Notes under the pieces: model-generated
The model's database searches: none
Seen by the model: the letters and a program-made list of their open reading frames with translations, nothing else
Told to the model about the DNA's origin: nothing
Part shown: in pieces, positions 13,929-52,120 of the stretch
Layout of the letters: the number at the start of each line of letters is the position of its first letter
How positions within the stretch are numbered: position 1 is the first letter of the stretch
Assembly: GCA_050084515.1 (NCBI GenBank)
Contig: CM114271.1
Span: 9,858,001 to 9,922,000 of the forward strand
Source: Blasia pusilla
Taxonomy: Eukaryota
Reading direction: 5' to 3'
Length of the DNA: 64,000 bases
Position numbers and translations under genes: made by a program

Positions 13929-14621
13929 TACATGGTGAAGCAATGGACATAACTTGTGACCGGAAAGCTTGGGCCGATAACCCGTTGTAACTAGAAAGGT
14001 TTAGTTGTTGCAATAAAGAAGACATGGATTTGGAGATTCGATGCTTGTATTGTAATTTTGAGTTTGGTTTGTGCAAGGCAATGAGTAGTTCTTCATATGC
14101 TTAGGATGTAAGTCAAGGAGACCAAACAATGAGTATTTGAGGTGAGAGCTTGTATTCAGATAAGGCATCTAGATCAGGACCAAGTGTTGAAGTACTAGCA
14201 TTTGGGCTCGCCCTAACGTCGGCGGGGCAGATGAGTCTGTCTTGGGGTTTGTGGTGATCTCATTCATGTTTCATGACTGAACTTAGTGACGCGCCTAGGT
14301 GGAATACAGGTGACCCAAAAGTAGTACGAGTTGGCTAGGTAGACAGGCGGTTGTTTACAAATAGTGAGTGAAGTGTTAGGTTGCAGACTTAGTGAGCTTA
14401 TTTTGATAGTTAGATTAGTTTGGCAGAACTAGTCTAGGCTCATCAGAAAGCAAAAGCTGATAAGTCTAAGTGCTGCAAGCGACAAACCTAAGACTTAAGC
14501 CAAAAAGAGGAATTGCGGGTTAGCTACGTAACGCGATTACGTGTTAAGGGTCGGCTTCCCAGAACTTAACATCAATAAGGTTTGCGTTGATGAGGACATC
14601 AACCTTCTAAGGAGGGGTGAG

Positions 14622-20100: not shown

Positions 20101-20384
20101 GATCTATACGAGGAGGTGTATATGACTCAACCACCTGGATACGAGCATCCCAAGTTTCCATTTCGTGTATGCAGGTTGAAGAAAGCTCTATACGGGCTCA
20201 AACAAGCTCCAAGAGCTTGGTATGGCAAGATTACATACGTCCTACAAGAGTTGGGTTTCAGGGTATGTGATTCTGACTCCTCGTTATATGTCTTGAGAGA
20301 ATAAGATCATACAGTTCTCATTGTGTTGGATGTTGACGATCTCTTGATAACTGGGAGTATTGAAGAAATGGTACCACAAGTCCA
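17117..20384 (+). pseudogene. Copia polyprotein, 5' part (gag, zinc knuckle, protease, GAG-pre-integrase, integrase, RT to the DD motif), with in-frame stops
   Basis: KLDEQNYNVWKFRMK, CNYCGIKGHYAKFC, WYIDFSASNHMT, WHKRIGH, ELIHNDVW, YKARLVAKGY, MDVKNAFLNG, LKKALYGLKQAPRAW, DVDDLLITGS. Confidence 0.93.
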
Positions 20385-21019
20385 GGGCTGGTATTCCGGC
20401 AGGGCAGAGGAAGAGAGGAGAGGAAGAGAGGAAGAGAGGAGAGTCTCTCTTAAAAAAAAGGGCCAAATCCGCCTCCTCTCTTCAAACTTTTTTGACATAT
20501 TTGAAATTTTTGTTTGCTTTCAAATTCATGAAATCTTTAGAAAAAAAAATAGACATCATAAGACCACTACAAACATTTTTCCATCACTCTCCATGTGAGC
20601 CTAAGTTTCTTCACATTGCCTGTCTCACTCTACAGTAAGGTGTGCCCATGGGTATTTTTGTTGGAGGACCATTGGCAAATAATTTGACCGGAAGTAGCAA
20701 TCTCATCTCAATGAAAGGTTCAAATAAAGACCAACTTTGTGAAATGTGAACACAGGAGACGATAATTAAACCAAAATATTGTTAGTTGTGTGGAGTAAAG
20801 AGGAACTGATGTCCCTTCATTCAGATCCTAAATCTGATAAACCGAGAAGCTACATCCCTCCCAACCCCTCGGAATTTAACAGGTTCCAACTCTTGCAACC
20901 CATCAGAATCATATGGCTTGCATCCTTTGCAAGCAAGCTCACCATAACAAAGGAAAGATTTTGAGAAGTGATTCCATTCCACCCTGCACCCGAAAATCCA
21001 ACTGTTTGGGAATCCGAAA

Positions 21020-22150
21020 TGGCAATCCGATAGGTTATAGGAATCCAACACGTCTTAGAGAAGAAAATAAGCCTAAGACTGGTTTGACAATACTAGGGGA
21101 ACGAGCCGAAAGTGAAGAAACCCGCCACAATGCCTCAGAATTTGGTCTCCCAGGGAAAGAGTCCGATCACTCAAGCAGCCAACCTGTCGGAATCCGATAG
21201 CTTGCCTGGAAAGGGTCAAGTTGCAGTGGTCAAAAAGTGAAAAGTTGCAACTTGTCGGAATCAGACGGGTTGCAAAATAAACATTCTGAGTAGCTAGACA
21301 AACACAATCGACAAGTCCAAAAAAAATATTCAGCAAACTTTTAAAACACCATTATCGTTTGAAAAAATCTCGTCCGTTATTACATCCGAAGGAAGCTCGG
21401 AAATGTACATTTGATCTAGTCTATGATTTCTTCAGCCTCGTCATCTACAAATTCACTCCTAACTCTCCTAAAGTCCTCTACAAAAGGAATGTCCTGGGAT
21501 ACAAGTGGATCCTCTGGCCGATTGTAGACGGGGATCAAAATGTTGGCGAATTGAAGATCCTTGGCCGCCCCCTAGGTACACCATAACGGTCCCATGTAAC
21601 ATGATTTGAGTCCCACCGCCTTCCTTGGCAGTATATCTTGTACGCTCTGCAATGTGACACCCATCCAGTATAAATATGTGCTCAGTCCTTGGAAATACCA
21701 TGATGGCAATCCAACAAGTAGTAGGAATCCAACAGGTCTTAGAGAAGAGAAGAAGCCTACGCCTTGTTTGACGATACTAGGGGAAGGTGCCAAAGTGAAG
21801 AAGCCCGCCAGAATGCCTCTAAAGTTGGACCAACAGGGAAAGAGTCCGATCACTCACGCAGCCAACCTGTCAGAATCCGACAGGTTGCTTGGAAGTGGTT
21901 AAAAAGGTGTAGTGGTCAAAAAGTGAAAAGTTGCAAGCCGTGGAAATCTGACGGGTTGCAAAATAGAAGTCCTCGGAGTACATAGACCATCACATTCGAC
22001 ATGACCAAAAAAGATATTCAGCAAACTTTTACAAACACCATCATCGTTCAAAAAAATCTTGTCTTATATTACATCCGAAAGAAGCTCAGAACTGTACATT
22101 TGATCTATTCTATGAATTATTTTGCCTCGTCATCAAATAAATCCCTACTC
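21020..22150. repeat. Subterminal direct duplication (~450-bp units, ~685 bp apart) in arm A, mirrored at ~39190-40310 in arm B
   Basis: ggcaatcc...aggaatccaac..gtcttagagaaga...gagtccgatcactca...tattcagcaaacttt...tacatttgatcta occurs at ~21020 and ~21705. Confidence 0.75.
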
Positions 22151-22197
22151 CAAACGCTGCAGTCAAGCTGGGTCCTTGAGTTCTTTGAACTCACTCG

Positions 22198-25100
22198 TCA
22201 TCGTTCGAGAGCTCTTCCAGAATTACTGTCGGCCTTGCCCTCCCAATTTTTCGGAATCGTGGGAAGTGACGATGGTATCACTACCAATGGTGGGTCTGGA
22301 ACCGGAGCTCTTGGCTTTGGAGAAGAGTTGTACGCCCCAACTAGCCTGTCCTAATCTGCCTTTGCCTCTTTGCAAAGATCAAACAGTTGCTGCCTTCCCT
22401 CAAGGCAGAGAATGTTCCTGCCACTCTACCAGGCGCCTCTGATGCTCGCCCCTGAAAGGCCCACTAAGTCAAACACCAAGTCACTCGGCCTTGAGCAGAG
22501 CTCGATGAGCGTTTGCATCAGGGCTGGCGACTTTTCCCTTCCTCTAAGTAAGGGGGTACCGTCTTGCATGTAAATTCCCAAGGGGGAATTGTATAAACTA
22601 TCTAAGCTGTACCCATCGAAGCATGGATCCACAGGATCCAAGATCTTAAACACCTGGAAGTTGTGCTCGGGCTGAACAAAGCAGTGAACATAGGAGTGGT
22701 CCATCTGTAAAGAAGCACGTTGGAAACAATGTCAGCAACAAGAAAGAGCTACTTGACCACTGGTCTACTCTCAGTATGGTGACATAATGTGCAACATGTC
22801 CCCAAAGAACTTTGCTTAATCCCAGAGAACTTCGTTACAATCCTAACATTGGAGCAACCTGTCGGAGTCCGACGGGTTATTTTACAAGTGTCTTGTGACT
22901 TTTTTGTCCATGAGCAACCCGTCGGAAGGCGACAAGTTGCTGGCTTAGAGCAGCCCATGGTTGGCTAAGTGCAACCTGTCGCTTTCAGACCGGTTGCAAC
23001 ATTCCAGAAACACAAGGAAAAAGCATAAGCACTTGCAACCCGTCGGGTTCCGACAGGTTGCATTCATCCAATGGAGACTTATGGTAAATTTGCAACCCGT
23101 CGCTTTCAGACGAATTACACCACCGAAGTCTCCAGCTCGAACAATCTGACGGGTTGCATGTAGAGATGGAACCCGTCGGAGAAAGACAATTTGGATATGG
23201 ATTTAGAGGCCTTACCCGAATTTGACTCGTCGCAGATCGGAGTGGGTACTCGTTCTTGATGACCCACGATTGCACCGTCCTCCACTTCAGCGACCTCTTG
23301 ACGCACTGCAGGTTGAAGAGCTCGTCCTTGCTCCCTCCAGTCAAAACTAAGAAACAGCCCCTGTCATTGAGATAAGCGTTTGCAAAGTAAAACAGGAGCG
23401 CGATCTGGTCATAAGAAAGAGGGACATTCCAGTATAGGACCCCGTCGGACGGATTCTCGTCCCACAAGCGCAACCTTGAGGGCAAATCAGCGATGAGGAG
23501 ATCCACCGCCACCTCTTCGACCTCCCCATGGACCGTCGAGGGAGTGTGCCCGTTTCGTTGAAGCTTCCATCCCAGCGTTGTCAATTTCTCGATGGCGGGT
23601 GTCGACGCTTGTGAACTGAAACTTTTTAGCTCATCCAGAAGATTACTGCATTGAATGATGACGCTTGTCCGGGTCGTTGTTTCTCTATGTCTTCCCAAGG
23701 ATGATGGAGTGTATTCCGCATCATGGTCTGCTCCTTGGGACAACCCTGGCGCCTCTCGCTTCCGCTTCTTCCGAGTCTGCGGTCGGCTTGTTGGGGTCTC
23801 TATTACCTCAGACTCTGGTGGAGATTTTTTTTGCGGAGAACCTGGTCTGACCCTCTCTCCCTGCTTGCCCGGACGATTTCGGCCCTCGCCTTGAATTCTC
23901 AGCCTCTCTTTGGGAAGACTCGGCCTCGGAATTCTTCGATCCCCTCGCCTTGGCTTTGAGACCCGTTGTAGATTTGTCCTTGCGATGACAACCTTGGACA
24001 CCAACTCCGTTGTCTCGAGGGCTTGCTCCTCCGCATCTCCTTCCAAAAAGTCTTCAGCCTGCACGAAATTGGGGATGCCGTCCCTACCAGCGGTCACTGC
24101 ATCATAGAGCAGGCGTAGATTTTTCTCGGTTATTTCTTCAGGGTTGTTGAAGTCCAGCCAGATCAGGCAATTCTCCACCTCCCAGTTGGACATGCTTTGA
24201 GCCATCTCCATGTCGTACATGGAAAATCTCTCTCCATCAGGCGGAGAATCCCACAGTTTGCAGGCTGTCGGTATTTTTTGCCATGTACCTACATTCTTAC
24301 AATGGACGAGATACCTGAACACCATCCGTTGGGCAGCTCTTAGTTGAGATGCATCGACCGCCTGCTCTTGAAGATCTCGATTCTTCTTTGCAAAATCCCT
24401 TTTCTTCGCCTCTATTTCTTCATCAAGGTTTGCTTGAGGGAGGATGCGATCCTTGAACATCGTCTTGAAGCCTGGGTTTTTTATAGGCTTGTCCCACATG
24501 TCATCCAGCCAAAGTTCAAAATCTTCAACACTCTCCAGGTTTGTTTCCTCCGGAACTGGCTCTATTCTTTTCAGCTCGGCTTGGAGATCCACGAGCATGG
24601 ACTTCCCGAGAAGCCGCAACGCGTCCCAGAATGACCATTCACGGAGCCAATGGGAGATCACTGGATCAGAGACACCCGGAGGATGGTGTGCCACCCTCTT
24701 TTGAGCCTCTATGCCCTCGAGACTGATTTTCATAAGTCGGATTCTCCTAAATTCCGAAATTCCGGACAAGGCAAATCGATGGACGCGGTCGAGAGACACT
24801 TTCTCCCCAATCTGACTCTGCGGATCTTCATCCCTCTTCCGCTGGTGCTTGATTATCGTCTTCATCTCCTTGTAGAAATTGGGGCCAAGTTCGGGGTTGA
24901 GAATGGCGATGTAGCGCTGCATCTTGTTTGCCGTGTTCTTCATAGCTGCAGATACTACAATTTGGATGAATTTAGCACGCTCAGACAGAGCCACTTTCTC
25001 CCTCCGCTCCAGCTCCAATGCAACACTCTTCTTGGCGGCTTGTATCTTCGACCAACAAAGGATTGTCACGGTTGCATCTTGGGAAATAAATGTATTTGCC

Positions 25101-27096
25101 CAAGTCTTTTTTTAGTTATTTGAGCACCCTTTGCCAGCATCTCATTTACAAGGGCGTCGCCCAAGAACCCCTTGTACTCTGCCGGATGCGTCGTTAGCAC
25201 TTTCTTCACCCGATCGCAATCTTGGATCCAGTGGTGGGTGACATTCCCCTCCGATACAATCCTGCACGTCCAAACTCAATATCAAAATTTTTGCAAGCTA
25301 CATGGGTTCCTGCAACCCGTTGGACTCCGATAGGTTGTCACAGCTCATGGCCGGAATGTTAGCTATGGGCTAAATTTTGCAACCCATCAGAGTCTGACGG
25401 ATTGCATTAAGATTTGTGATTGCCTGGTTTCAACCCATCGGACTCCGACGGGTTGTCAGATAATTTGTATTTAGAGAGTTGTCTCCGCAAGAAAAGTGAA
25501 CATATCAACCCGTCAGAGTCTCACAAGTTGCGCAATTTCAATTAAAGCTGCAATTTGACTCCAAAAATCTAACTCCCTTACTCCGATTACCTTCTCGTGT
25601 TGGCAAATGCAACCTTTCGGACTCGGACGAGTTGCTTTCGGCCAAAAATATCCTAAACCAATGGTTTGTCGAACAACTCGTCGGACTCCGACAAGTTGCT
25701 TTCAGCCAAAAACATCCTAAAACAGCGGCCAGTTGAGCAACTCCTCGGACTCCAACGAGTTGCTTTCGGCCAAAAAATCCTAAAATAGCGGCCAGTCGAG
25801 CAACTCGTCGGACTCCGACGAGTTGCTTTCAACCAAAAACATGCCAAAAATAGTGGCGAGTCAAACAAGTTGTCGGAGTCCGACGGTTTGCGGCAAGAGG
25901 AAACTTACCTGTTCATGGCATGCATTGCCATCTCCACCGTCGCCATGTGAAGAGGGTATGGATTTAGCACGACTGCCTTCACGCAAAAATGCGCCTCCAA
26001 TTAGTTTGGGCGCTCCTCTGCAAACTAGGTCCACGCCATGAACCTGTGGTTTCCATCCCAGATGAAGAAATACAGGTTCCGCATCCAACTTAATCGCCCT
26101 TCTGAATTCCTGACCTCTCATCCTCCAGAATGTGTCGAGCGCTTCCAAGTCCTCCTTCGTAACCAGCGCTTGGGTTCCATGTTCATCGTAAGGCTCAACA
26201 TAGAACGGAGGGAAGCTGTCGACGTAGGATGCTGTCGCTGCCGATTGTTTTAGCTTCGCAATATCCTCGTCAGACTAAATTTCGCGGACGTACTCCATTG
26301 TCCGCAATCGGCAAAGTGGAATTCTCGGGGCGTTCTGGCCCTCCATCAGTACCATCTGCTTTACCACCTGTCACAACCGGGAAAAGGTCAATAAACTACA
26401 CTGAATTGCCAATGAATTGCAACATGGCCCTTCACATAACTCAAAGATCCAAGATCGTTTCTTACTCGCTCAAAGATTGGGTCGGTGTCTTGGCCAGCCA
26501 ACTGCTGTGGGACAGCAGATGGCAAGTCCACTCGAAACTCGTCGATCCGATAGAGGTCGATTTCTTCCGTCGGGATAAGAGACGAGGAAGATCGCTCTCC
26601 TGCTTCTTCAGCGATGTCCACCATCTCCACGCTGGCGGTCCTCATGACCTCATCGTCCGTCACTCGAACTTCGTCCGTTTCCGCTATATTGATTGTATCC
26701 CTGGACTTCATCGGGGACATTTCCTGCATCTCAACACTTTCGGTTGGATGGGCCGGGCTTTCTTCAATGGCAATCGCTTTTTCCCTTTGAGCTTTTGCCA
26801 ATTCTGCTCTCCTCACCGACGCGTCCAGACGCTTCTTCTCACGCTTTTCATCGGCGATCCTTTTCTTCAAGGCCTGCGACGCCTTAGCCTCTGCGTTCTG
26901 TTTTTTGAACGTCTCCTTAACACGTTTTGCAAGAAGCTCCTGCTTGTGCATCTCCGCTTCCCTTTCCCGCTCCTTGATTTCTTGCTACTTTATCTCATTG
27001 GCCGAACGAGGCCCTGGAGACGGTGACGCAAGAGTCCTCCCACCCTAGGGGAGTGAAGCTCCCAACCTTGCTTGCTTGATTTTTTTTCCTCGTCAT
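22198..27096 (-). pseudogene. Arm A ParB/Srx-like + N4/N6 DNA-methyltransferase-like fusion gene; exons ~27096-26466, 26367-25909, 25261-23216, 22704-22198
   Basis: GT-AG introns at the same positions as in arm B. Exon 2 contains LYFFIWDGNHRFMAW. Exon 3 ends with VAVDLLIADLPS...WNVP...YLNDRGCFLVL. Exon 4 has EKSPALMQTLIELCSRPSDLVFDLVGLSGASIRGAW*SGRNILCLE. A few frameshifts and stops are present. Confidence 0.72.
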
Positions 27097-27503
27097 TGTT
27101 CCCAAAAATGCCTCCTATGGACAAGGAAATTTCTTTCTGTGCATGATCCGTCGCCTTGATGAGTCGCCTTGCTGATGTCACGATGAGTCGGCTTGATGAG
27201 TAGCTCGAATCGTCTCGCGATCCTTTGCTCGAATCGTCTCACGATGAGTCGCGGTGTAAAGCGCCCCTTGGTATCTGGTCAGCCGCTGTGGGGAAGAGCA
27301 ATTGAGATCGCGAAACAAAAAACCGGAAATGAGCGAACCCTCGGCTATTTATACTTTTCAAGCCGTTGGGCTGACCGTTGGGTCGCATCGTCATTCCGAC
27401 GGTGACGTGTCGGCCGTTATGGAAGTCTGGACGTGAAAAACACCAACCCGACGGCTCTGACGGGTTGCACTCTTTCCGTGGGTTCCAGGCATCCGTCCTC
27501 CTA

Positions 27504-27931
27504 GCAACCCGTCGGAAATCGACAGGTTGCGCGCCTCCGCCATCTTTGGGCAAGAACGCGGGCTACCAGCGGAACTCGTCAGAGGCCAACAGGTTGCACG
27601 CTTCCTTCATGCAAGTGTTACAAGGCGAGGCACTTGCGCAACCCGTCTGAGGCCGACGGGTTGCGCGCCTCCGCCGTCTTTGGGCAAGAAAGCGGGGCAC
27701 CCGCGCAACTCGTCGGAGGCCGACGGGTTGCACGCTTCCTTCATGTAAGCGTTACAAGGCGAGGCACGTGCGCAACCCGTCTGAGGCGGACGGGTTGCGC
27801 GCCTCCGCTGTCTTTGGGCAAGAAGGCGCGGTACCCGCGCAACTCGTCGGAGGCCGACGGGTTGCACGCTTTGCTTATCTTGGGGTAATAGGCAAGGTAC
27901 CAAGGCAACCCGTCGGTTAGTGACAGGTTGC
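27504..27931. repeat. Phased array of the 27-bp palindrome, 67-bp period (arm A intergenic region)
   Basis: Motif starts at 27504, 27571, 27638, 27705, 27772, 27839 and 27905. Confidence 0.9.
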
Positions 27932-28449
27932 ACGCTTTTCTATCCCTCGGGTAACAATGCGACAACGCATAGTTCTGAGGCAACCCTTAGCAATCCGATG
28001 GGTCACAACATCTACTCTGAGTTGGACAATCCTCCAAAAGTCCCCAACGATTGGTTGCCTTTGCAAATGCAAGTGATGTCTCGTGTTTGATGCTAGCAAA
28101 ATCGACTCAAAAGACCATTGGTCGGCAAGAAGGGGGTACCAACCCATCGGACTCCGACCGGTTCCAACTTGCATTGGGACACGGAAACAAAAAAATAGAA
28201 GTGGGTGATTCCATGCAACCCACGTCTCTGATTCCCAAATTCTGCAACCCATCGGACTCTGTCAGGTTGCAACAGAATTGAATCCATCATGTTAGACATT
28301 TTCACCTACAAAACTTCATCTTGTCAATCAAATTCTGTCAGGAGAATCTGAGTCCCTATTCACTATAAATTAAACATCCTCATTCTCATTCCTAATCCCA
28401 TTTTTATCCTCATTCTTATTCTCAGTCCTCCCAATGGAATCTTCTGGGA

Positions 28450-30460
28450 ATGGATAATTATGTGAAGCTCACTTGTGGTAGTCATCTAGCGGCCCTTCCT
28501 CAATCAAAAATCGTTCGACCGCAAGCTCGTGAGTCTTTCAAAGCAATGGATGAAAAATTTCTCTCCGTTCGATTTCTTCTCCAAATTGGAACCATCTTTG
28601 TATCCAAGGATATTAGGGTAAAAGGTACATAGGAAATAATAGGTGAGACAGTCCAGCCAGTGATTGGAGACCCTAAAGTATGGAATCTCCTACCTCTAGC
28701 AAATGATCAATACAGAGTTTACGGCTTGCCTCTGAATTCCTCAATTTCCCAAGCAGACGGTCGAGAATTAGCTAGTGCACCGAGCTCTACGTTTGTAACT
28801 CCTAGCTCAATAGATCCGGCATCGACTCCAACTTCACACGCTCGTAACAATGTTGTACTTCCTGAAGACATCCGGATGTCGTCGACCTCAGTGGATCTGT
28901 CGGACACCAATTGGGCCCTCTGTCCCTCTTCTCGTTCCTCTTGCGAGTATCAGGCAATAGTTTGGTATCGTCTTTGGCCTTGAAAATATTCAAGCACATT
29001 CTTGTCGACAAGCTGCCGCCCATATACGATGGTAATTGTATTTTTGAGTTGCCTCCACTTGCTGCTCCTACTCAAAAGAAAGATGGAGGACGCTTGAAGG
29101 GTATGGACAAAAAGTCTGATTATCATCGATGGTGCAGGCTTCAACAGACTAGTGCTTCAATTCTAGATGGTCCTTGGATTGTCTCCCGACGCCAATGCGT
29201 TGGAGCCTTGGAGTGTAGAAGTCCACCATGCTTGTATCTAGAGCGCAACGGGCGGGTGAATACGTCGCAATTCTCCCCCAAGAATGCAGAAACTCCATAT
29301 GAGGTCGGTGCCACCATACCGCCGGGAGGCCATTGATGTCCTCATTGTCAGGCATCCCCTTTCTGCGTTGGAGCGTGTCCTGCATACATATTTTTCATTG
29401 TCCACGACTTGGGCTCCACGTCAGATTACACAAGGCTGGAAATTCATTTTGGCTCCCACACTCATCCTGTGACCGATGCAATTCAGAGACACATCAAGGA
29501 GGATGTGGCAAAGAAAGTGACCAAGGTCTACAAAAACTCTCCGGGCTCAAAGCCTGGAGTGATCAAGCTCACAACAACATCACAAATTTGTGAACAATTG
29601 CTTGGAATCCTTGTACAAGGCAAGATCACGGTTGCTAAGGAGAAACAACTATGGGAAAATCTCGCATTTCTCGCTGATCCTGAATGCTTCCCGAATTTGC
29701 TGCGTCAAATACAAGTACTGGATGGAAAGACCGCCGAAATGGATGCCATTGCCAGAATCAAGGCCAACTCCAGATTTCCATTCATTCAGAGATGGCAGTT
29801 CTTGGGTCAAGGAGGCGAGGGATCCAGGGCCTATGTCTTCAAAATGTAAACCACAGGTCCGTCGAGTGGCCTCGATCTTATAGATCGAATGAGGGAAGGG
29901 GAAGATCTTTACGGCAGCTGGGTAAAATTTGATATTTGCTACAGAGTGCTGAACGGATGGTTGACGATGGGTGCTCATGTTTATGACCATGTGGAGAGGG
30001 ACTCAAAACTATATTTGTCTGTGAAGTAAAAGCAGAAGACATTGGCAGTTTCAAGATGTGATGGTTACTCTTATTGGAGGTGGTGAAGGAAAACAAAAGG
30101 CCACCTCCGGAAATTTATGGGTTCATGGCGGAAAATGCACAACCTGGGTGGATTGCTATCAGGGAAGTGTTCTGGGGTGGAGAGGTTCAACCAGAGAGGG
30201 AAAGGCCGGATGCTTTCCATTGGCAACAGTCTCTGACCCGGTACATCAAATCTTGCATCAAGGAGAATAAGAGGACAGAGCATGTCACTCTGCTCCAAGG
30301 CTGCAAGGACATCAAAACCTTGAAACAAGCCATGGAATGCCAAGAAGAACTTCATGGGTGGTGGAGGAAGCATGCGATTGAGGGGAAGTACAAAGAGTTG
30401 TGCTCTTGGCTGAGTTGGTGGACTGTACGTATGAGACAATGGGGAAACTTCATGCGGCAC
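28450..30460 (+). pseudogene. Arm A Mutator-like DDE transposase with GCM/WRKY-like zinc finger, 3'-truncated, with stops
   Basis: RRQCVGALECRSPPC...CPHC...C...HFGSHTHP, then WVKFDICYRVLNGWLTMGAHVYD, YGFMAENAQ and ERPDAFHWQQS (C/D-x2-H motif). TATA-like CTATAAAT at ~28363. Confidence 0.72.
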
Positions 30461-30569
30461 ATGAGTTCACTATTTCCTCTTGTCAAACTCACGCTCAGAA
30501 CTGCTGGAAAAGTTGCAGCTCAAGTTGAGAAGCGTGGGAACTATAGGGATTTCAAACCAAAGAAACCAA

Positions 30570-30735
30570 GCAACTTGTCGGATGCGACAGGTTGCCCGAG
30601 TGTGCAACCCGTCGGAAACAGACGGGTTTCCCGAGTGTGCAACCCATCGAAAACACACAGGTTGCTCGAGTGTGCAACCCGTCGGAAACGGATGGGTTTC
30701 CTGAGTGTGCAACCAGTCGGAAACCGACGGGTTGC
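30570..30735. repeat. Array of the 27-bp palindrome with ~35-bp period, in the central spacer of the foldback
   Basis: Motif starts at 30570, 30604, 30639, 30674 and 30709, separated by ~8-nt ccgagtgt-like linkers. Confidence 0.88.
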
Positions 30736-30986
30736 ATCAAGAATATTGATGCAACCCGTATAAAAGTATGCAAGCCTCATGTATACAAGGCCTGCAAGGC
30801 CGGATGGGTTTCAGATGACTTGCACTTGGATCTTCTAGCCCGGAGTGGCCAAAGGTTCTTGCAACCCGTCATAATCAGATGGGTTGCAATAGGTGCTTCC
30901 TGGGTGTTGCAACACGTAGGGACCTGACATGTCGCAGAGTCGTTCATGGGATGCCTCGGCCTTGCAACCCGTCTGGTTAGACATGG

Positions 30987-32885
30987 TTCCTGGCATTCCA
31001 TGGCCTGCTTCAAGGTTTTGCTGTCCTTGCAGCGTTGGAGTAGAGTGACATGCTCTGTCCTCTTATTCTCCTTGATGCAAGATTTGGTGTACCGGGTCAC
31101 AGACTGTTGCCAATGGAAAGCATCCAACCTTTCCCTCTCCGGTTGAACCTCTCCACCCCAAAACACTTCCCGTATAGCAATCCACCCAGGTTGTGCATTG
31201 TTCGCCATGAACCCATAAATTTCCGAAGGTGGCCTTTTGTTTTCCTTCACCACCTCCAATAAGAGTAACCAACACATCTTCAAACTGCCAACGTCTTCTG
31301 CCTTTACTTCACAGACAAATATAGTTTTGAGTCCCTTCTCCACATGGTCATAAACGTGAGCACCCATCGTCAACCATCCGTTCAGCACTCTGTAGCAAAT
31401 ATCAAAGCTTACCCAGCTGCCGTAAAGATCTTCCCCTTCCCTCATTCGATCTATAAGATCGAGGCCATTCAACGGACCTATGGTTGACATTTTGAAGACA
31501 TAGGCCCTAGATCCCTCGCCTCCTTGGCCCAAGAACTGCCATCTCTGAATGAATGGAAATCTGGACTTGGCCTTGATTTTGGCGATGGCATCCATTTCGG
31601 CTATCTTTCCATCCAGAACTCGTATTTGACACAACAAATTCCCGAAGCATTCAGGATCAGCGAGAAATGCGAGATTTTCCCATAGTTGTTTCTCCTCAGC
31701 CGCCGTGATCTTGCCCCGTCCAGGGATTCCAAGCAATTGTTCACAAATTTGTGATGCCGTTGTGAGCTTGATCACTCCGGGCTTTGAACCTGGAGAGTCT
31801 CTGTAGACCTCGGCAATTTTCTTTGCCACATCCTCCTTAATGTGTCTCTGAATTGCATCGGTCACAGGATGATTGTGGGAGCCAACATGAAGTTCCAGCC
31901 TTGTGTACTCTAACCTGGAGCCCAAGTCGTGGACAATGAAAAATATGTATGCAAGACACGCTCCAACGCAGAAGGGCGATGCCTGACAATGAGGACATCG
32001 ATGGCCTCCCGGCGGTATGGTGGCACCGACCTCGTATGGAGTTTCTGCATTCTTGGGGGGGAATTGTGACGTATTGACTCGCCCGTTGCGCTCTAGATAC
32101 AGGCATGCTAGACTACTACACTCCAAGGCTCCCACGCATTGGCGGCGAGAGACAATCCAAGGACCATCTGGAATTGAAGCACTAGTCCGTTAAAGCCTGC
32201 ACCATCGATGACAATCAGACTTTTTGTCCATACCCTTCAGGCATCCTCCCTCTTTCTTTTGAGCAGGAGCAGCAAGTGGAGGCAACTCAAAAATGAAATT
32301 ACCATCGTACGTGGGCATCAACTCGTCGACAAGAATGTGCTTGAACATTTTCAAGGCTAGAGACGAAAGCAAACTATTGCCTGATACTCGCAAGAGGACC
32401 GAGTAGGCGGACAGAGGGCCCGGTTGGTGTCCGACAGATCCACTGAGGTTGATAACATCTGGAATCTCTTCAGGAAGTACAACATTATCATGAGCGTGTG
32501 AAGTTGGAGTCGGAGCTGGATCTACTGAGCTAGGAGTTGCAAACGTAGAGCTCGGAGCACTAGGAAATTCTCGACCGTCTACTTGGGAAACATACGAATT
32601 CAGGGGCAAGCCGTAAACTCTGTATTGACCATTTGCTAGAGGTAGGAGATTCTATACTTTACGGTCTGTAGTCACTGGTTGGACTGTCTCACCTATTATG
32701 TCTTCCGTACCATCCACCCTAACATCTTTGGATACAAAGATGGTTCCAATTTGGAGAAGAAATTCAACAGAGAGAAAATTTTCATCCACTGCTATGAAAG
32801 ACTCACGAGCTTGCGGTCGAACGATTTCTGATTGAGGAAGGGCCGCCAGATGACTGCCACAAGTGAGCTTCACATAATTATCCAT
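30987..32885 (-). pseudogene. Arm B Mutator-like transposase, truncated after ...KQAMECQE
   Basis: ORFs 32652-32885, 32190-32609 and 30777-32135 are closely similar to the arm A copy (WVSFDICYRV, YGFMANNAQ, DAFHWQQS). Homology stops abruptly at ~30987. Confidence 0.72.
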
Positions 32886-33280
32886 TCCCAGAAATTTCGT
32901 ATGGGAGGAGGGTGAGAATGAGAATGAGAATTTTTAATTTATAGTGAAAAGGAAAACAGATATTCATGACAGATTTTTATTGACAAGATGAAGTTTGGTA
33001 GGTGAAATTGTCTGACACAATGGATCCAATTCTATTGCAAAGATTCAATTGTGTTGCAATGTGTTACCGAATTTGGGAAGCAAGATTGTTGGAACCTGTC
33101 GGAGTCCTGGTAACTCAACAATTAACCCAAGCTAAGCGAAGCCTGCAACCCGTCAGCTTCGAACGGGTTGCACGCTTCTACCTTACCTTCAAACGCAAAC
33201 ATGGTCAAAGCTAGCAACCTGTCGCTCTCCAACGAGTTGCTTGGATACCGCTCCTTCTTGCCTGAAGATGCCGGAGGATT

Positions 33281-33843
33281 GCAACCCGTCGGCATCAGAC
33301 GGATTGCCCAATTATCTCACGGTGTAACACTTACATGAAGGAAGCGTGCAAAACGTCTGTTCCCGACGAGTTCCGCGGGTGGCCGCACCTTCTTGCCCAA
33401 AGACGGCAAGGCGTGCAACCCCTCGCCCTCCGACGGGTTGCGCAAGGGCCTCGCCTTGTTTCGCTTACATGAAGGAAGTGTGCAACCTGTCGGACTCCGA
33501 CGAGTTGTGCGGGAAGCCCGCATTGTTAACCCTTGACGAGGGAAGCGTGCAACCCAACGGTCTCCGACGGATTGCGCGGGTACGTCCCATTCTTGTCCGA
33601 AGACGGCGGAGGTGCGCAACATGTCGGTCTCCGACGGGTTGCGCGGGTACGCCCCGTTCTTGACCAAAGACGGCGGAGGCGCGCAACCCGTCGGAGACCG
33701 ATAGGTTGCGCGGGTACCTCGCGTTCTTGTCCGAAGACGGCGGAGGCGCTCAACCCGTCGGTCTCCGACGGGTTGCTCGCGCACCTTGCGTTATCTTCCC
33801 AGGACGGCGGAGGCACGCAACATGTCGGAGTCCGACCGGTTGC
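33281..33843. repeat. Phased array of the 27-bp palindrome, 67-bp period, 9 units (arm B intergenic region)
   Basis: Motif starts at 33281, 33348, 33415, 33482, 33549, 33616, 33683, 33750 and 33817. Confidence 0.9.
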
Positions 33844-34188
33844 CATTTTTCACGTCCGGACTTCCGTAACGTCGCCGTCGAAAGGACGACGGGACCCAAC
33901 GGTCAGCCCAACTGCTAGAAAAGTATAAATAGGGCAGAAATCACTCATTTCTAGTTTCTCATTTAGCGATCTCCATTCCTCTCTCTCCCGCGCAGCAGCT
34001 GATCAGATACCAAGGGGCGTTCCACACGGCGAGTCATCGCGAGTCGATACGAGGGAACGAGAGCGAGACGGTTCGACCAAACGAGAGCGAGACGGTTCGA
34101 CTGAACGATCGCGAGACGATTCGAGCTTCCCATCAAGGCGACTCATCTCGACATCAGCAAGGCGATTGATCAAGCAATTCCGGGAAAA

Positions 34189-37100
34189 ATGACGAGGAAA
34201 AAAGTTCAAGCAACGAAGTCTAGGAGCTTCACTCCGAAGTCCATTAGGACTCCTGCGTCAACATCTCCAGGGCCTCATTCGGTAAATGAAATTAGGCAGT
34301 AGGAAATCGAGGAGCAAGAAAGGGAAGCGGAGATGCACAACTAGGAGCTTCTTGCGAGACGTGTTCAAGAGGCGCCGACAGACGTAACGCAGAGGCCGAG
34401 ACGTCGCAGCCTTGAAGAAAAGGATCGCCGATGAAAAGAGAGAAAAGAAGCGCCTGGACGGCGTCGAGTGAGAGCATTGGCTAAAGCGAGGAGGGAAAAG
34501 CGATAGCCATTGACGACAGCCCTGCCCGTCCAACCAAAAGTGTTGAGATGCGGGAAATGTCCCCCATGAAGTCCGGGGACACAATCAACATAGCGGAAAC
34601 GCCAGAAGTTCAAATCACGGACGATGAGGTCATGAGGACCGCCAGCGTGGAGATGGTGGATATTGCCGAAGAAGCCGGAGAGCGTTCATTCTCGTCTCCA
34701 AGCCCGGCGGAAGACATCGACCTCTATCAGATCGACAAGTTCGATCGATTTATAGTCTGTATCTCGACACATTGGCTGGTGAAGAAACCGACCCAATTTT
34801 TGAGCGGGTAAGAGAGGATCTGGGTTTTTTGAATTATGTGAATTACAATTCATTGGGAATTCAGTGTAGCTTATTGATCTTGTCCCGGTTCCGACAGGTG
34901 GTAAAGCAGATGGCACTGATGGAGGGCCACAACGCTCCGAGGATTCCACTCTGCCGATTGTGGACAATGGAATACGTCCGCGAAATTCAGTCCGACGAGG
35001 ACATTGCAAAGCTAAAACAATCGGCGGCGACAACATCCTACGTCGATAGCTTTCCTCCCTTCTATGTTCTGCCTTACAACGAGCATGGAACCCAAGCCCT
35101 GGTTACGGAGGAGGACTTGGATAAGCTCGACACATTCTGGAGGATGAGAGACCAGGATTTCAGAAGGCAAGTAGAGGGCACGGAATTCAGCTGGATGAGG
35201 AATCTTTATTTCTTCATCTGGGATGGAAATCACATGTTCATGGCGTGGACCAAGTTTGCAGAGGAGCGGCCCAACTCCTTGGAGGCACATTTTTGCGTAA
35301 AGGCAGTGGTCCTTCCTCCATTCCCTCATCAAATGGCGACGATGGAGATGGCAATGCATGCCATGAACACGTAAGTATCTTCTTGCTCCTAACCGTCGGA
35401 CTCCGACAAGTTTTTTGGGTTGGCACTGTTGTTGGGATGCTTTTGGCCAAACGCAACTCGTTGGACTCCGACCAGTTGCTCGATTGATGAATGGGTTAGG
35501 TTATTTTTTGCTGAAAGCAACTCATCGAATTGCGACGAGTTGTTCGACTGACCACATGTTAAGTAAGTTTTTGGCCCAAAGCAACCCGTCGGAGTCCGAC
35601 GGGTTGCTCGACTCGCCGCCTTTTCAGGATGTTTTTTGAAGAAAGCAACTCATCGGACTCCGACGAGTTGTTCGACTGACCACAGGTTTAGTATGTTTTT
35701 GGCCCAAAGCAACCCGTCAGAGTCCGACCGGTTGCATTCGGAAGTTGGTTTAGCAAATTTTGCGTCAAATTGCAAGTTTCCATTCAATTGCGCAACCTGT
35801 CGGACTCCGACTGGTTGATATGTTCACGTTTGATACGGACTATCTGACAACCCGTCGGACTCCGACGGGTTGTTATGTTCACGTTTGATATGGACTATCT
35901 GACAACCCGTCGGAGTCCGACGGGTTGAAACCAGGCATTCACAAATGTGAATGCAATCCGTCGGACTGCGACGGGTTGCATCATTTAGCTCGTTGCTAGA
36001 ATCCGACCTTGAGCTGTGACGACCCGTCGGAGTCCGACGGGTTGCAGGAACCCATGTAACTTACAAATTTTTTGACGAGTTGAGTTTGGATGTGCAAGAT
36101 TGTATCAGAGGGGAATGTCACCCACCACTGGATCCAGGACTGCAATCGGGAAAAGAAGGTGCTTACGACGCACCCGGCAGAGTACAAGGGGTTCTTGGGC
36201 GATGCCCTAGTAAATCAGATACTTGCAAAGGGTGCACAGATAAAGAAGAAAACTTGGGCAAATAAGTTTATTTCCCAAGATGCAGCCCTAACCATCCTTT
36301 GCTGGTCAAAAATACATTCCGCGAAGAAGAGCGCTGCACTGGAGCTGGAGCGGAGGGAGAAATTATCTGGGTGTGAGCGCGCGAAATTCATCCAAGCTGT
36401 AGTATCTGCAGCCACGAAATACACGGCGAGCAAGATGCAGCGATACATCAGCATTCTCAACCCCGAACTTGGTCCGAAGTTTTACAAGGAGCTTAAGGCG
36501 ATTATCAAGCGCCAACGGAAAAGGGATGAAGATCCGCAAAGTCGGATTGGGGAGAAAGTGTCCCTGGATCGCGTGCATCGGTTTGCGTTGTCTGGCATAA
36601 GCGAGTTTAGGAGAATCCGACTGATGAAAATCAATCTCGAGGGCACAGAGGCCCAGAAGAGGGCGGCACACCATCCTCCGGGTGTGTCCGATCCAGTGAT
36701 CTCCCACTGGCTACGCGAATGGTCGTTCTGGGACGCGTTGCGGGTTATCGGGAAGTCCGTGTTGGACGGTCTGCAAGCGGAGCTCAAAAGATTAGAGCCC
36801 ATTCTGGATGAAGCAAACCTGGAAAGTTATGTAGATGTCGAGGTTTGGCTTGACGACATCCGGGACAAGCCAATAAAAAATCCAGGATTCAAGACAATGT
36901 TCGAGGTTTGCGTCCTCCCGCAAGCAGAGCTTGACAAAGAAATCGAGGGGAATAAACGGGATCAAGCAAAGAAGAAGCGAGATCTACAGGAGCAGACGGA
37001 CCTGCGAGATCTACAGGATTCAGTTCGAGTAAAAGTTGCCCAACGGATGGTCTTCAGGTACCTCGTCCACTGTAAGAATGTAGGTACCTGGGGAAAATTA

Positions 37101-39142
37101 CCTGCAGCCTTGAAATTGTGGGCTTCGCCGCCTGATGGAGAGACATTTTCCATGTACGACATGGAGATGGCGCAACACATGTCCGATTGGGAGGTGGAGA
37201 ATTGCCCCATTTGGCTTGACTTCAACGATCCTGAAGACATCACCGATAAGGATTTACGAGTGCTTCATGATGCAGTGGCCTCAGGACAAGACGACATCCC
37301 CAATTTTTTGCAGCCTGAAGACTTCTTCGGAGGAGATGCGGAAGAGCAAGCCCACGAGACAGTTGACTTGGCTTCCAAGGTCCGTACAGCCAAAGACAAA
37401 TCCACAGCGGGTCTCAAAGGCAAGGCGAGGGGAGGGAAGGAATTCCGAGGCCGAGTCTTCCCAAAGAGAGGCTGAAAATTCAAGGCCAGAGCCGGAATCG
37501 TCCGGGCTAGCGGGGTGAGAGGGTCGGACCAGGTCCCCGGCGAAAAAACCCCACCAGAGTCAGAGGTCATAGAGACCTCGACAAGCCGTCCGCAGACTCG
37601 AGAGAAGCGGAAGCGAGAGGTGCCAGGGTTGTCCCAAGGAGAATACAATCCATCATCCTTAGGAAGACACAGAGAAACAACGACCCGGACAAGCGTCCTC
37701 CTTCAGTTCACTCCTTTACTGGATGAGCTGAAAAGCTTCATTTCTCAAGCGTCGACACCAGCCATTGATAAATTGACAACGTTGGGACGGAAGCTCCAAC
37801 GAAACGGGCACGCTGCCTGGACGGTGAATGGAGTGGTCGAAGAGGTTGCGGTGGATCTCTTGATCGCTGATCTGCCCTCAGGGTTGCGACTGTGGGGCAA
37901 GAATCCGTCGGACGGGTACCTGACTGGAATGTGCCGCTCTCTTATGACCAAATCGCGCTATTTTTCTCCTTTGCGCCTATCCGAGTGAGGGGTCGCTTCT
38001 TAGTGTTGACGGAGGAGCGAGGAAGAGCTCTTCAACCTCCAGGGCGTCAAGAGGTCGCTAAAGTGGAGGACGGCGCAATCGTAGATCATAAAAAATGAGT
38101 ACCCACTCCGATCCGCGACGAGTCAGATTCGGGTAAGGCTCAATTCCTGTAGTATAATCTCAAATATATTTTCAAATTCGGGTAAGGCTAAATGCGTGTA
38201 AATTTCAGATAGTATATCTCCGTTGTTTTTGTCCGTGAGCAACCCGTCGGAAGGCAACGGGTTGCTGGCTTAGAGCAGCCCATGCTCGGCTAAGAGCAAC
38301 CCGTCAGTTTCCGACGGGTTGCATCTTTCCCAGAAACACAGGGAAAACCGTGGTGTACCTGCAACCCGTCGGGTTGCAATTGCTTTTGGTTTTTCCTTAT
38401 GTTTCCGGAAAGCTGCAACCCGTCGGAAAGTGACCTGTTGCTCTCAGCCGAGCATGGGCTGCTCTAGGCCAGCAACCCGTCGCCTTTTGACGGGTTGGTC
38501 AGGGACAAAACAACCCGTAGGACTCTGATTGGTTGCTCCAAAGTTAGTAATTGAAAAAAGTTCTCTAGGGTCAAGCCGACTTCTTTGGTGACGTGTTGCA
38601 CATTATGCCAAGTTGCTGACATTGTTTCCAACGTGCTTCTTTACAGATGGACCACTCCTACGTTTAGTGCTTCGTTCGGCCCGAGCACAATGTCCAAGTG
38701 TTCAAGATCCAGGATCATGTGGATCCATGCTCAGATGAGTACAGCTTAGATAGTTTGTACAATTCCCCCCCGGGAATTTACATGCAAGACGGTACCCCAC
38801 TTCTGGGAGGAAGGGAAAAGTCGCCAGCCCTGATGCAAACGCTCATCGAGCTCTGCTCAAGGCCGGGTGACTTGGTGTTCGACTTAGTGGGACTTTCAGG
38901 GGCAAGTATCAAAGGCGCCTGGTAGAGTGGCAGAACATTCTGCCTCGAGGAAGGCAGAATCGCTTGACCTTTGCAAGGAGGCAAAGCAGAATACGAAAGG
39001 CTCGTTAGGCGTACAACTCTCCACCGGCCGAGAGCTCGGTTCGGCACCCACCATTGGTAGTGACTCCATCGTCACTTCCAACGATTCTGAAAATCATGAG
39101 GGCAAGGCCGAAAGTAATTTTGCAAGAGCTCTCGGACGATGA
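34189..39142 (+). pseudogene. Arm B ParB/Srx-like + N4/N6 DNA-methyltransferase-like fusion gene; exons ~34189-34807, 34898-35370, 36098-38132, 38647-39142
   Basis: TATAAATA at ~33924 and start MTRKKVQ. GTAAG donors at 34808, 35371 and 38133. Motifs IPLCRL...YVRE...FFIWDGNHMFMAW, VAVDLLIADLPSG and EKSPALMQTLIELCSRPGDLVFDLVGLSGAS. Several stops and frameshifts. Confidence 0.72.
35390..36045. repeat. Cluster of 27-bp palindromes filling intron 2 of the ParB-MTase-like gene (mirror at ~25310-25890)
   Basis: A perfect copy GCAACCCGTCGGAGTCCGACGGGTTGC lies at 35581-35607, with about ten further variants at roughly 55-65 bp spacing. Confidence 0.88.
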
Positions 39143-40974
39143 CGAGTGAGTTCAAAGAACTCAAGGACCCAGCTTGACTGTAGCGTTTGGAGTAGGGAGT
39201 TATTTGATGATGAGGCAAAAGATTTCATAGAATAGATCAAATGTACAGTTTTGAGCTTTTTTCAGATGATATAAAGGAGATGATTTTTTTGAACGATGGT
39301 GGTGCTTGTAAAAGTTTGCTGAACATTTTTTATGTCTTTTCGAATGTGATCGTCTTTGTACTCCGCGGACTTCTATTTTGCAAACCGTCGGATTTCTCCT
39401 GCTTGCAACTTTTCACTTTTTGACGACAAAGACCTTTTTTACCACTTCAGGCAACCCGTCGGATTTCGGCAAAGCTGTTGCGATCGACTCTTTCCTGTTG
39501 GTCCAACTTAAGAGGATCTGGCGGGCTTCTTCCTTGGCACCTTCCCTCAACTCGTAAAGGCGGCGTAGGCTTCTTTTCTTCTCTCAGCACGTGTTGGATT
39601 CCTACTACCTGTACGATTGCCATAATGGTATTACCAAGGACGGAGCACATATTGATACTGGATGGGTGTCACATTGCAGAGCGTACAAGGTATACTGCCG
39701 AGGAAGGCGGAGGGACTCAAATCAGGTTACATGGGACCGTTATGGCGTACCTAGGGGGGGCCAAGGCTCTAGAATTCGCCAACATTTTTTATCCCTTCTA
39801 CAATCGGCCAGAGGAGCCACTTGTATCCTAGGACATTCCTTTTGTACTGTCACCGAGGAGAGTTAGGAGTAAATTTGTAGATGACGAGGCTGAAGAAATC
39901 ATAGACTAGGTCAAATGTACATTTCCGAGGTTCCTTCGGAGGTAATAAAGGACGAGATTTTTTCTACCCATAATGGTGTTTGTAAAAGTTTGCTGGAAAA
40001 TTTTCTTGGACTTGTGGATTGTGTTCTTTTAGCTACTCAGAATTACAATTTTGCAACCCGTATGATTCTGACGGGTTGCAACTTTTTGCTTTTTGCCCAC
40101 TGCAACTTTTTAACCATTTCAGGCAAGTCGCCGGATTCGGCAGTTGACTCGCTTGAGTAATGGGACTCTTTCCTGTGAGACCAACCGACGCATTGTGGCG
40201 GGCTTCTTAACTTTTGGCTCGTTCCCTACATTCGTCAAACCGATTCTGTGCTTCTTTTCTTGTCTAAGATGTGCAGGATTCCTACTACCTGTCGGATTGC
40301 CATTTCGGATTCCCAACCTGTTAGATTTTCGTGGATGCAGGGTGGAAGAAAATCACTTCTAAAAATATTTCCTTTCTTATGGTGAGATTTCTTACGGGTT
40401 GGGAGGGGTACAGCTTCTCGGTTTCTCAGCTTTAGGATCTGAATGAAGGGACATCAATTCCTCTTTACTCCACACAGCTAACAATCTTTTGGTTCACTTA
40501 TCCTCTCATGTGTTCACATTTCACAAAGTTGGTCTTGAGCAAACACCATTAGTAACCAACAGAAAGTTGGTTATGGGGCAATTCAGGGGAGGCCATGATG
40601 CAGGCAACAATCCCTGCAAAAAGAGAGATTGGCATCCGGGTGGTCCTCCAACAAAAATACCCATGGGCACTGCTTTTTGTAGACCGAGACAGGTAATGTT
40701 AAGAAACTTAGGCTCACATGGAGAGTGATGGAAAAATGTTTGTAGTGGTCTTATGATGTCTACTTTTTTTTCGTCCCCAAGAAAAAGGAGGTTTTTTTAG
40801 GGCCAAATGTGGACCACTACCTACTCTCTTCTAAAGATTTCCTGAATTTGAAAGCAAACAAAAATTTCATATATGTCAAAATTTTTTGAAGAGAGGAGGC
40901 AGATTTGGCCCTTTTTTTGACGAGAGACTCTCCTCTCTTCCTCTCTTCCTCTCTCCTGCCAGAATACCAGCCCC

Positions 40975-44227: not shown

Positions 44228-44405
<178 letters not shown>

Positions 44406-45041: not shown

Positions 45042-45193
<152 letters not shown>

Positions 45194-45938: not shown

Positions 45939-52120
<6,182 letters not shown>

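Follow-up and report, generated by a model that had tools for sequence, protein, structure and literature searches.

Giant DNA transposons that carry genes for DNA-binding and DNA-modifying proteins of prokaryotic type have recently been recognized as a class in algae. Sola1-1_Ec32 of the brown alga Ectocarpus, an element of 21.5 kb, is reported to carry an accessory gene for a ParB-like domain and an N4-cytosine/N6-adenine (N4C/N6A) methyltransferase on the strand opposite to the transposase, and similar proteins are cited there for transposons of green and red algae (PMC12477816). For the giant Plavaka elements (EnSpm) of red algae, the preprint on Bostrychia describes two accessory genes, namely PAG2, encoding an N6-adenine methylase combined with a SET domain, and PAG3, encoding a ParB N-terminal domain combined with a 2-oxoglutarate (2OG) oxygenase; tandem inverted-repeat arrays adjoin PAG3, the idea of an element that 'binds and modifies itself' is put forward, and the same PAG genes are reported for Mutator elements of Chondrus and for Zisupton elements of the Bangiophyceae (bioRxiv 10.1101/2025.02.11.637652). 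Furthermore, Iyer et al. 2016 record a chlorophyte and chytrid Dam-type family carrying, as a fusion, a helix-turn-helix of the ParB type (PMC4738411). The present study deals with a block of 20.6 kb located in a 64,000-nucleotide stretch (hereafter, the window) of the land plant Blasia pusilla (GenBank assembly GCA_050084515.1, contig CM114271.1, positions 9,858,001 to 9,922,000 of the forward strand). Two members of a single, highly repeated DNA-transposon family, diverged from each other, were found to make up the block; they lie tail to tail within a copia reverse transcriptase (RT) gene and have lost their inner parts. Each of them carries a transposase gene and, opposite to it, an accessory gene with a methyltransferase-like domain. 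Green-algal transposon proteins of the ParB-methylase type have reportedly been treated by Iyer et al. in 2011.

Taken as a whole, the locus is best explained as a pair of dead copies of a repeated family whose accessory protein would act on the family's own palindromes, an account to which we assign a somewhat better than even chance. As in the algal class, a methylase-bearing accessory gene was found opposite the transposase of a giant DNA transposon. The Sola1-1_Ec32 accessory protein resembles the one studied here in its length of ~1,100 amino acids, in its position on the strand opposite to the transposase of a giant DNA transposon, in its C-terminal methyltransferase, predicted to produce N4mC or N6mA, and in the proposal that it binds and modifies its own element (PMC12477816). 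It differs in belonging to a Sola1 transposase and a brown alga, whereas the transposase is MULE-like and the host a land plant here, and in a ParB-like domain that is stated there and unconfirmed here; the likeness is one of description. Palindrome arrays are not mentioned for Sola1-1_Ec32 in the accessible part of that account. Both the Plavaka elements and the Blasia family are giant DNA transposons with DNA-modifying accessory genes and arrays of inverted repeats, which in the former adjoin the ParB-domain gene, and the self-binding hypothesis is common to both. The Plavaka elements distribute these functions over PAG2 and PAG3, whereas here the methylase fold lies in one protein and the arrays occupy promoter, introns and subtermini.

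Since algal transposons with such accessory genes and inverted-repeat arrays have been published, the kind of system is already known. An earlier interpretation of this stretch made without database searches (the sequence-only reading) had proposed an undescribed system, and this proposal is preceded by the Ectocarpus Sola1 and red-algal Plavaka accounts (PMC12477816; bioRxiv 10.1101/2025.02.11.637652). No land-plant report of such ParB/methylase transposons was found in the literature, with most subscription journals, Repbase and Dfam lying outside the scope of the search. What is new here is the land-plant host with its liverwort relatives, the MULE-like transposase, the non-canonical methylase loop and the precisely mapped palindrome architecture.

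Structure and Copy Number of the Transposon Block

Self-BLAST and repeat searches revealed two inverted arms of ~10 kb each (20931-30346 and 40393-30987) with 77-90% identity, and a global alignment extended this homology to the outermost ends (20385-20987 and 40337-40973, inverted). Both ends of the block start with GGGCTGGTATTC in inverted orientation. The two arms share the same order, which represents the unit of the family: a terminus, a subterminal repeat region with a direct duplication of ~430 bp (self-BLAST), an outward-pointing accessory gene, a bidirectional promoter region with a phased palindrome array, and an inward-pointing transposase gene (Table 1). This layout, including an array placed between two TATA boxes, had been noticed beforehand, and self-BLAST together with palindrome and TATA scans confirmed it.

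Table 1. Coordinates of the transposon block, its genes, promoter regions and palindrome arrays, and of the flanking RT gene (positions within the window).
Feature	Position	Strand	Remarks
Whole block	20385..40973	.	Inverted pair of 3'-truncated copies, same DNA-transposon family; within a copia RT
Left flank, Ty1/copia RT	19747..20384	+	RVT_2 profile 2-154, then ~27 more codons
Right flank, same Ty1/copia RT resumed	40976..41395	+	Same orientation; RVT_2 profile 198-242
Left terminal region	20385..20987	+	Begins GGGCTGGTATTC
Right terminal region	40337..40973	-	Inverted, ~90% identical to left terminal region
Left subterminal direct duplication	21019..22134	+	21019-21445 / 21703-22134, 83% identity, 4 palindromes
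Right subterminal direct duplication	39206..40303	-	39206-39623 / 39880-40303
Left accessory gene	22427..27238	-	Blocks ~26984-25909 (frameshifted; N-terminal part with ParB-like motif), 25261-23216 (helical middle domain, conserved, and methylase half with D-L-P-S), 22704-22427 (methylase motif I; ends at in-frame TAG common to both arms)
Right accessory gene	34189..38925	+	Blocks to 35370 (intact ORF 34628-35371 with W-D-G-N-H), 36099-38132 (in-frame stop 37473-37475, then later frameshift), 38647-38925 (motif I, then TAG)
Left divergent promoter region	27347..28364	.	Two TATAAAT boxes; 7 palindromes in 67-bp phase, 27504-27931; loose copies 28139, 28244
Right divergent promoter region	32937..33930	.	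Two TATAAAT boxes; 11 palindromes in exact 67-bp phase, 33145-33843
Left transposase gene	28450..30465	+	Begins MDNYVKLTCG; several frameshifts
Right transposase gene	30987..32885	-	C-x2-C...H-N-H finger, DDE-like core; homology to left copy stops at 30987
Palindrome array, left intron after N-terminal exon	25312..25891	.	8 copies, ~64-bp period; right counterpart 35453-36045, 9 copies
Palindrome array, left last intron	22854..23118	.	5 copies; right counterpart 38239-38536, 5 copies
Centre, palindrome cluster between the two truncated transposase genes	30570..30990	.	35-bp period; copies 30604-30887

To evaluate the abundance of the family, reads of a Hi-C DNA run carrying the same species label (~1% of the run read, 1,934 million letters) were kept at ≥92% likeness. 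In total, 142,714 reads matched, 4,095 of them at ≥99%, 49,667 at 95-99% and 88,952 at 90-95% likeness, with summed bin depths between 115 and 1,789. The block therefore represents a highly repeated DNA-transposon family, and the proposal of a large land-plant transposon family agrees with this high-copy signal and with the plant-specific Pfam domains of a neighboring host gene. Beyond position 40975, 360 reads pass into unlike DNA with an agreement of 0.31, indicating that the transposon end occurs at many genomic places. Several one-base indels private to this copy (e.g., 34495 and 37439) appear 'corrected' in most of the reads.

The block is not a single intact element but a tail-to-tail pair of broken copies. 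Both copies are dead: they contain stops and frameshifts, and their transposase genes are cut at the center. A single fold-back element with 10-kb inverted arms, transposing as a unit of 20.6 kb, would account for the two intact, inverted outer ends and for flanks that are parts of the same, uniformly oriented copia RT gene. Several observations, however, render such an element quite improbable. The two transposase genes end at different points, the right one at 30987 and the left one beyond 30426, where it reaches ~120 bp further in the 3' direction than its counterpart before a GT donor at 30427. Moreover, 517 reads depart from the window sequence after 30978, in a bin with a summed depth of 712, and most copies thus lack the central junction. 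The read depth also differs between the arms, with 186-346 over the left accessory exons as compared to 612-1,028 over the right ones. No target-site duplication (TSD) is present at either flank of the block (20385/40973), and ~25 bp of the RT are missing as compared to the read consensus of the empty site, which was seen uninterrupted in 1,291 reads of the Hi-C sample. For Mutator/Mutator-like elements (MULEs), a TSD of 9-11 bp would be typical.

The divergence of the arms points in the same direction. For the transposase (28633-32651), the ratio of nonsynonymous to synonymous substitution rates (dN/dS) ranged between 0.23 and 0.62 in four blocks, with dS values of 0.15-0.19, whereas the accessory gene (22429-26984 versus 34485-38922) showed dN/dS values of 0.21-0.35 in five blocks and dS values of 0.30-0.58. 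These low ratios, well below 1, and the unequal dS values indicate that the arms were for the most part functional lineages while they diverged, that their history is mosaic, and that they did not arise by neutral decay following an in-place duplication. The dS contrast between the two genes suggests recombination or gene conversion between lineages of the family. The present structure, that of two diverged members lying tail to tail, could for instance have resulted from a deletion after two insertions close to each other. The missing TSD, together with the failure to find a complete copy or a second terminus of the element within the 64-kb window, counts against the explanation given at the outset; regarding the former, no TSD can show at 20385/40973, because the two ends probably originate from two different copies.

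The Accessory Gene and Its Relatives

Comparison of the two arms showed that the accessory gene is interrupted by two canonical GT-AG introns common to both, resulting in three coding blocks. Of the four exons initially proposed, three blocks were recovered, and a fourth, upstream exon is possible. The acceptor preceding the second coding block reads CAG followed by G in the left arm (25263-25262) and CAA followed by G in the right arm (36097-36098), the latter being a private defect of the right copy. In three RNA runs, 145, 223, and 191 reads matched at ≥92% likeness, with 1, 0, and 4 of these, respectively, reaching ≥99%. Since the reads are few and almost none is identical to the locus, the latter is at most faintly transcribed. 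No splice joint was among the rows listed for these three runs, and the intron calls therefore derive from the sequence itself.

A protein homologue search with the 708-residue open reading frame (ORF) of the left arm returned 31 representative clusters at E ≤ 1e-3. All 30 matches listed for the longest homologue came from the liverwort Riccia sorocarpa, where they are annotated as 'hypothetical proteins' and spread across the chromosomes; the accessory gene thus belongs to a multi-copy family with at least 30 paralogues in this species. Using tblastn, the Riccia proteins were mapped with all their domains to both arms, in three homologous coding blocks each (E down to 1e-32). A tblastn search of 50,697 phage records with the homologue P0006 yielded no match.

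The annotation of the Riccia homologues merely as hypothetical proteins would be compatible with a host gene that was captured in the style of Pack-MULEs, or with a host family present there by chance, in either case without a role for the element. This explanation is very improbable in view of the remaining evidence. The gene occupies the same place and orientation in both arms, it experienced purifying selection while the arms diverged, and the read depth over it amounts to hundreds, as for the transposase. Likewise, the number of paralogues in one liverwort and the presence of the element's own palindrome in the introns speak against a captured gene, and the same type of gene represents the accessory gene of algal transposons. 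We therefore retain the interpretation as an accessory gene belonging to the element.

The Methyltransferase Domain

The last exon of both arms matches positions 165-218 of PF01555 (N6_N4_Mtase), with E-values of 0.0093 (16.4 bits) and 0.052 (13.9 bits), and the best match of a homologue (P0050) reached an E-value of 1.1e-5 (25.9 bits); in relation to the curated cut-off of 26.7 bits, all three are consistent but sub-threshold, and they are confined to this part of the profile. No other Pfam family was obtained for the ORFs of the element. DNA-methyltransferase families of PHROGs match the same stretch with S-adenosylmethionine (AdoMet) motif I, PADLOC MTase_II matches up to five of the 24 accessory-family members, and methyltransferase matches from NCBIfam were obtained for 4/24.

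An AlphaFold model was computed for P0053, a homologue of full length (alignment of 62 rows, mean predicted local distance difference test score (pLDDT) of 70.6). Its C-terminal residues 780-1075 were modeled with a pLDDT of ~85-93. Foldseek placed the model next to 39 chains of the PDB at E ≤ 1e-3, with CcrM in first place (7.5e-8), followed by M1.HpyAVI, M.BceJIV, and M.MboIIA. VIA-align yielded the highest value for M.MboIIA (Z 16.2, root-mean-square deviation 2.9, 195 residues aligned), followed by M.BceJIV (15.6), CcrM (15.1), M.PvuII (14.9) and rotifer N4CMT (14.6), with M.RsrI also being within the range of 14.4-15.6. All 20 chains at Z ≥ 8.6 were N6A/N4C or MT-A70-type methylases. These comparisons of a predicted structure establish an amino (N6-adenine/N4-cytosine) DNA-methyltransferase fold of the beta class at the C-terminus of the accessory family. 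In tblastn, this domain is matched by the exons of the window, and the fold determined at the family level was by homology also assigned to the window gene. The amino-methyltransferase-like character initially attributed to the outward gene is thus upheld by the sub-threshold PF01555 matches, the PHROGs matches and the fold of P0053. The central part of the model (residues 270-660) represents an all-helical middle domain with a pLDDT of >90, for which the whole-protein search gave weak helical matches (Z ≤ 6.6).

With the beta-class enzymes named above, the family shares the fold (Z 14.4-16.2) and the order of the motifs, the catalytic loop being first and AdoMet motif I last; the motif V-F-D-L-V-G-L-S-G is encoded by the last exon and thus lies downstream of D-L-P-S. 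Unlike in these enzymes, an intron divides the domain, which is moreover fused to ~700 residues of other domains. The canonical catalytic motif IV of the class is (D/N/S)-P-P-(Y/F/W). In its place, both arms carry I-A-D-L-P-S, and the Riccia homologues D-[ILM]-P-[ST]-G. In addition, an in-frame TAG follows nine codons past motif I in both arms (22427-22429 and 38923-38925), and the homology to the Riccia proteins extends ~20 codons beyond it. The TAG thus represents a nonsense mutation that is old and common to both arms, or else the genuine end of a shortened protein. Given the altered tetrad and the TAG, the methylase may be inactive, and these features speak against a catalytic role of the accessory protein. 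The Marchantia sperm N4-cytosine methyltransferases MpDN4MT1a/b, which can be compared by description, are likewise bryophyte proteins with a prokaryote-type N4/N6 methylase domain, but possess a canonical TSPPY and are encoded by host genes expressed in spermiogenesis (bioRxiv 10.1101/2021.02.12.428880).

The N-Terminal Region

The N-terminal exon (ORF 34628-35371) aligns well to the Riccia proteins, and W-D-G-N-H-(M/R) is conserved in both. ParB/Srx domains feature a D-G-x-H-R type motif on a strand-helix and a beta-alpha-beta-beta-alpha-beta-alpha order. The predicted order of strands and helices in residues 94-261 of P0053 fits this order.

The assignment of a ParB/Srx domain, as made in the sequence-only reading, was not confirmed by any of the approaches applied. 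ParB_N (PF02195) was detected by Pfam at E ≤ 10 in none of the 24 accessory-family members, and the scans of the family with PHROGs, NCBIfam, and PADLOC returned no ParB families. The family profile found nothing relevant among PDB sequences, and hhalign yielded a probability of 0.15 against phage P1 ParB, the sole and distant, partition-type comparator. The dedicated model of the window N-terminal ORF (pLDDT 50.4) was too poor to search, giving no Foldseek match at E ≤ 1e-3 and a best VIA Z of 2.7. The ESM-atlas neighbors of the ORF are mostly unnamed, with ParB_N occurring in only 2 out of 30 (11% of members). Weighing the conserved motif and the predicted fold order against these results, we regard a ParB/Srx-like N-terminal domain as an evenly balanced proposition. 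In the searches with the full P0053 model, the hit lists were filled by the methylase domain. A phage protein from BFVD named ParB/Sulfiredoxin, ranking fifth for this model, was discarded as uninformative for the N-terminus, since its aligned length of 311 columns fits the methylase domain alone.

Among the ESM-atlas neighbors of the N-terminal ORF (34865-35371, +), PF12520 (DUF3723) was present in 5 out of 30 clusters and 31% of members. In the Starships, giant transposons of fungi, DUF3723 represents the conserved accessory gene, and a deep link among accessory proteins of unrelated giant transposons is possible.

The Transposase Gene

The right transposase is contained in a single frame of 718 codons (32933-30780), which begins with MDNYVKLTCG like its left counterpart and is interrupted by in-frame stops at 32652-32654 and 32190-32192. 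When the transposase ORF alone was submitted to ESM-atlas, the first match (0.97, 192 of 256 features shared) carried the MULE family PF10551, and nine of the ten best family-bearing matches share family or clan with the best one. We probably deal with a transposase of the Mutator (MULE) type whose N-terminus carries a zinc finger of the WRKY/FAR1 type. The Mutator-like assignment made beforehand is thus backed by the ESM-atlas neighbors only, and was not reproduced by Pfam.

Several results leave this classification weak. Pfam gave no hit for the transposase ORFs, even at E ≤ 1 or ≤ 10, two protein searches with the transposase ORF found no homologue of near or greater length, and phmmer against PDB sequences returned chance-level rows only. 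A metagenome scan recovered six contigs (L001-L006) with decayed relatives of residues ~200-372 at 32-45% identity. These are short and distant relatives of eukaryotic origin, AT-rich (33-42% GC), and contain many in-frame stops; the accessory gene was absent from all six loci, as was any recurrent palindrome. The relatives read F-M-A-D ... C-x-x-H-W-E-E, and the corresponding stretches of the window copies are F-M-A-(N/E)-N ... D-A-F-H-W-Q-Q. These positions would correspond to three parts of the Mutator signature, namely its second D, its C/D-x-x-H motif and its E, and both window transposases would in this case have lost catalytic residues. Three of the contigs (L002-L004) also carry an RT-like ORF at one end.

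A transposase from another DDE superfamily would explain the missing Pfam MULE match, and the algal accessory genes also occur on Sola1, Plavaka/EnSpm, and Zisupton/KDZ elements. Furthermore, the Bostrychia authors report that Plavaka elements were misfiled as MULEs through shared accessory genes (bioRxiv 10.1101/2025.02.11.637652). In the present case, however, the ESM-atlas result was obtained with the transposase ORF alone, MULE being named in nearly all of its named matches, and the termini are not of the CACTA type. A non-Mutator origin is therefore unlikely, and the Mutator type is retained here. In maize MuDR, mudrA and mudrB are convergent and driven from the terminal inverted repeats (TIRs). 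The Blasia family resembles MuDR and other MULEs in the DDE transposase, as suggested by its MULE neighbors, in possessing a second gene and in its long terminal regions, but its two genes diverge from one internal promoter, the second gene is methylase-like, and neither a TSD nor an intact TIR pair is present at the locus.

Palindrome Arrays and Their Possible Function

The recurrent palindrome of the family is 27 bp long and consists of two 12-bp arms separated by a 3-bp spacer, GCAACCCGTCGG-NNN-CCGACGGGTTGC. Allowing ≤3 mismatches, 34 matches were obtained, all between 21247 and 40079, as compared to 0 expected from 100 shuffles; at ≤5 mismatches, 57 matches were detected, as compared to 0 in 50 shuffles of the block. 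All 57 copies reside within the block, and none was found in the other 43 kb of the window. The clusters are mirrored between the arms and are restricted to non-coding positions, namely the promoter, two introns and the subtermini. The 12-bp arms are conserved and the spacer is variable, a pattern which would be expected of the site of a dimeric DNA-binding protein. The densest arrays, in the promoter and in two introns and thereby inside or immediately upstream of the accessory gene, account for 35 out of the 57 copies. Each intergenic region contains exactly two TATA(A/T)A(A/T) boxes, which are divergent, ~1 kb apart, and bracket the array (27347/28364 and 32937/33924). In addition, a joint between position 30857 and position 40394 of the other strand occurs in 53 DNA reads, its shorter side measuring 33 letters; this probably reflects palindrome similarity between the center and the subterminal region of other copies.

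Based on this arrangement, the accessory protein may bind the 27-bp palindromes as a dimer and, by means of them, act on the element's own DNA. It could autoregulate the divergent promoter shared by both genes, and it might mark or shield the element against silencing by N4C/N6A methylation; if the altered catalytic loop is dead, marking or shielding would have to be achieved by binding alone. We put this mechanism forward tentatively, at slightly less than an even chance. The same mechanism was already proposed for algal transposon accessory proteins. Within the Mutator family, VANC of VANDAL21 in Arabidopsis is likewise an accessory protein said to bind its own motifs and alter the methylation of the element, but the effect described for it is the induction of hypomethylation, and a methylase fold is lacking; this comparison is one of description (bioRxiv 10.1101/2025.02.11.637652).

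Alternatively, the palindromes may represent sites of the transposase, recognized by its C-x2-C...H-N-H finger and serving the transposition complex and promoter autoregulation, while the methylase-like protein acts elsewhere or as a non-catalytic helper. The 12-bp TnpA motifs of En/Spm provide a precedent. The palindromes also occur in the subterminal regions (21179-21959 and 40053) and beside the truncated transposase ends, and the transposase possesses an N-terminal zinc-finger-like stretch. Pfam, hhalign, and model searches confidently identified no DNA-binding domain in the accessory protein, the catalytic loop of which is non-canonical. The concentration of 35 of the 57 copies inside or just upstream of the accessory gene is less easily reconciled with transposase sites, as is the position of the published algal arrays next to the ParB-domain gene (bioRxiv 10.1101/2025.02.11.637652), although neither point is decisive. 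We consider transposase sites rather unlikely, and binding by the accessory protein the better candidate. In a more far-reaching version of the latter, which is speculative and has a low probability, the family would represent a highly repeated, bryophyte-grade Mutator-type lineage whose own protein reads the palindrome and writes or mimics a prokaryote-type N4C/N6A mark on promoter, introns, and ends. Such an epigenetic self-label encoded by the transposon would counter 5mC silencing by the host, and elements of this type could have been the source of domesticated bryophyte N4-cytosine methyltransferases, e.g., Marchantia DN4MT1.

Genomic Surroundings

The window also contains a host-type gene at 1149-5616 (+) featuring the plant-specific Pfam domains DUF3741, VARLMGL, and DUF4378, the remainder being long terminal repeat (LTR) retrotransposon sequence and long dinucleotide runs. 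A gypsy-type LTR retrotransposon with gag, protease, and chromodomain is present in two copies (8239-16171 and 58154-63983; 73-78% identical) and includes an internal 97% duplication (8239-9269 / 14622-15648). A further RVT_1 ORF was located at 46562-47188 (-), and a 349-bp tandem repeat of 2.4 units at 42662-43501. Perfect (CT)n, (GA)n, and (AG)n runs of 74-109 units (44230-44401, 45044-45191, 47316-47534, and 51934-52118) all fall within 8 kb.

Implications

If the proposed interpretation is true, the class of giant DNA transposons carrying prokaryote-type DNA-binding and DNA-modifying genes together with presumed site arrays extends from algae to land plants. The Blasia family would then offer an unusually clean test case, comprising a defined candidate site with 12-bp arms and a 3-bp spacer, 57 mapped copies, a conserved promoter layout and a protein family under purifying selection. 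It would thus become testable whether transposon-borne amino-methyltransferases place 4mC/6mA on plant DNA, or whether they became binding-only proteins.

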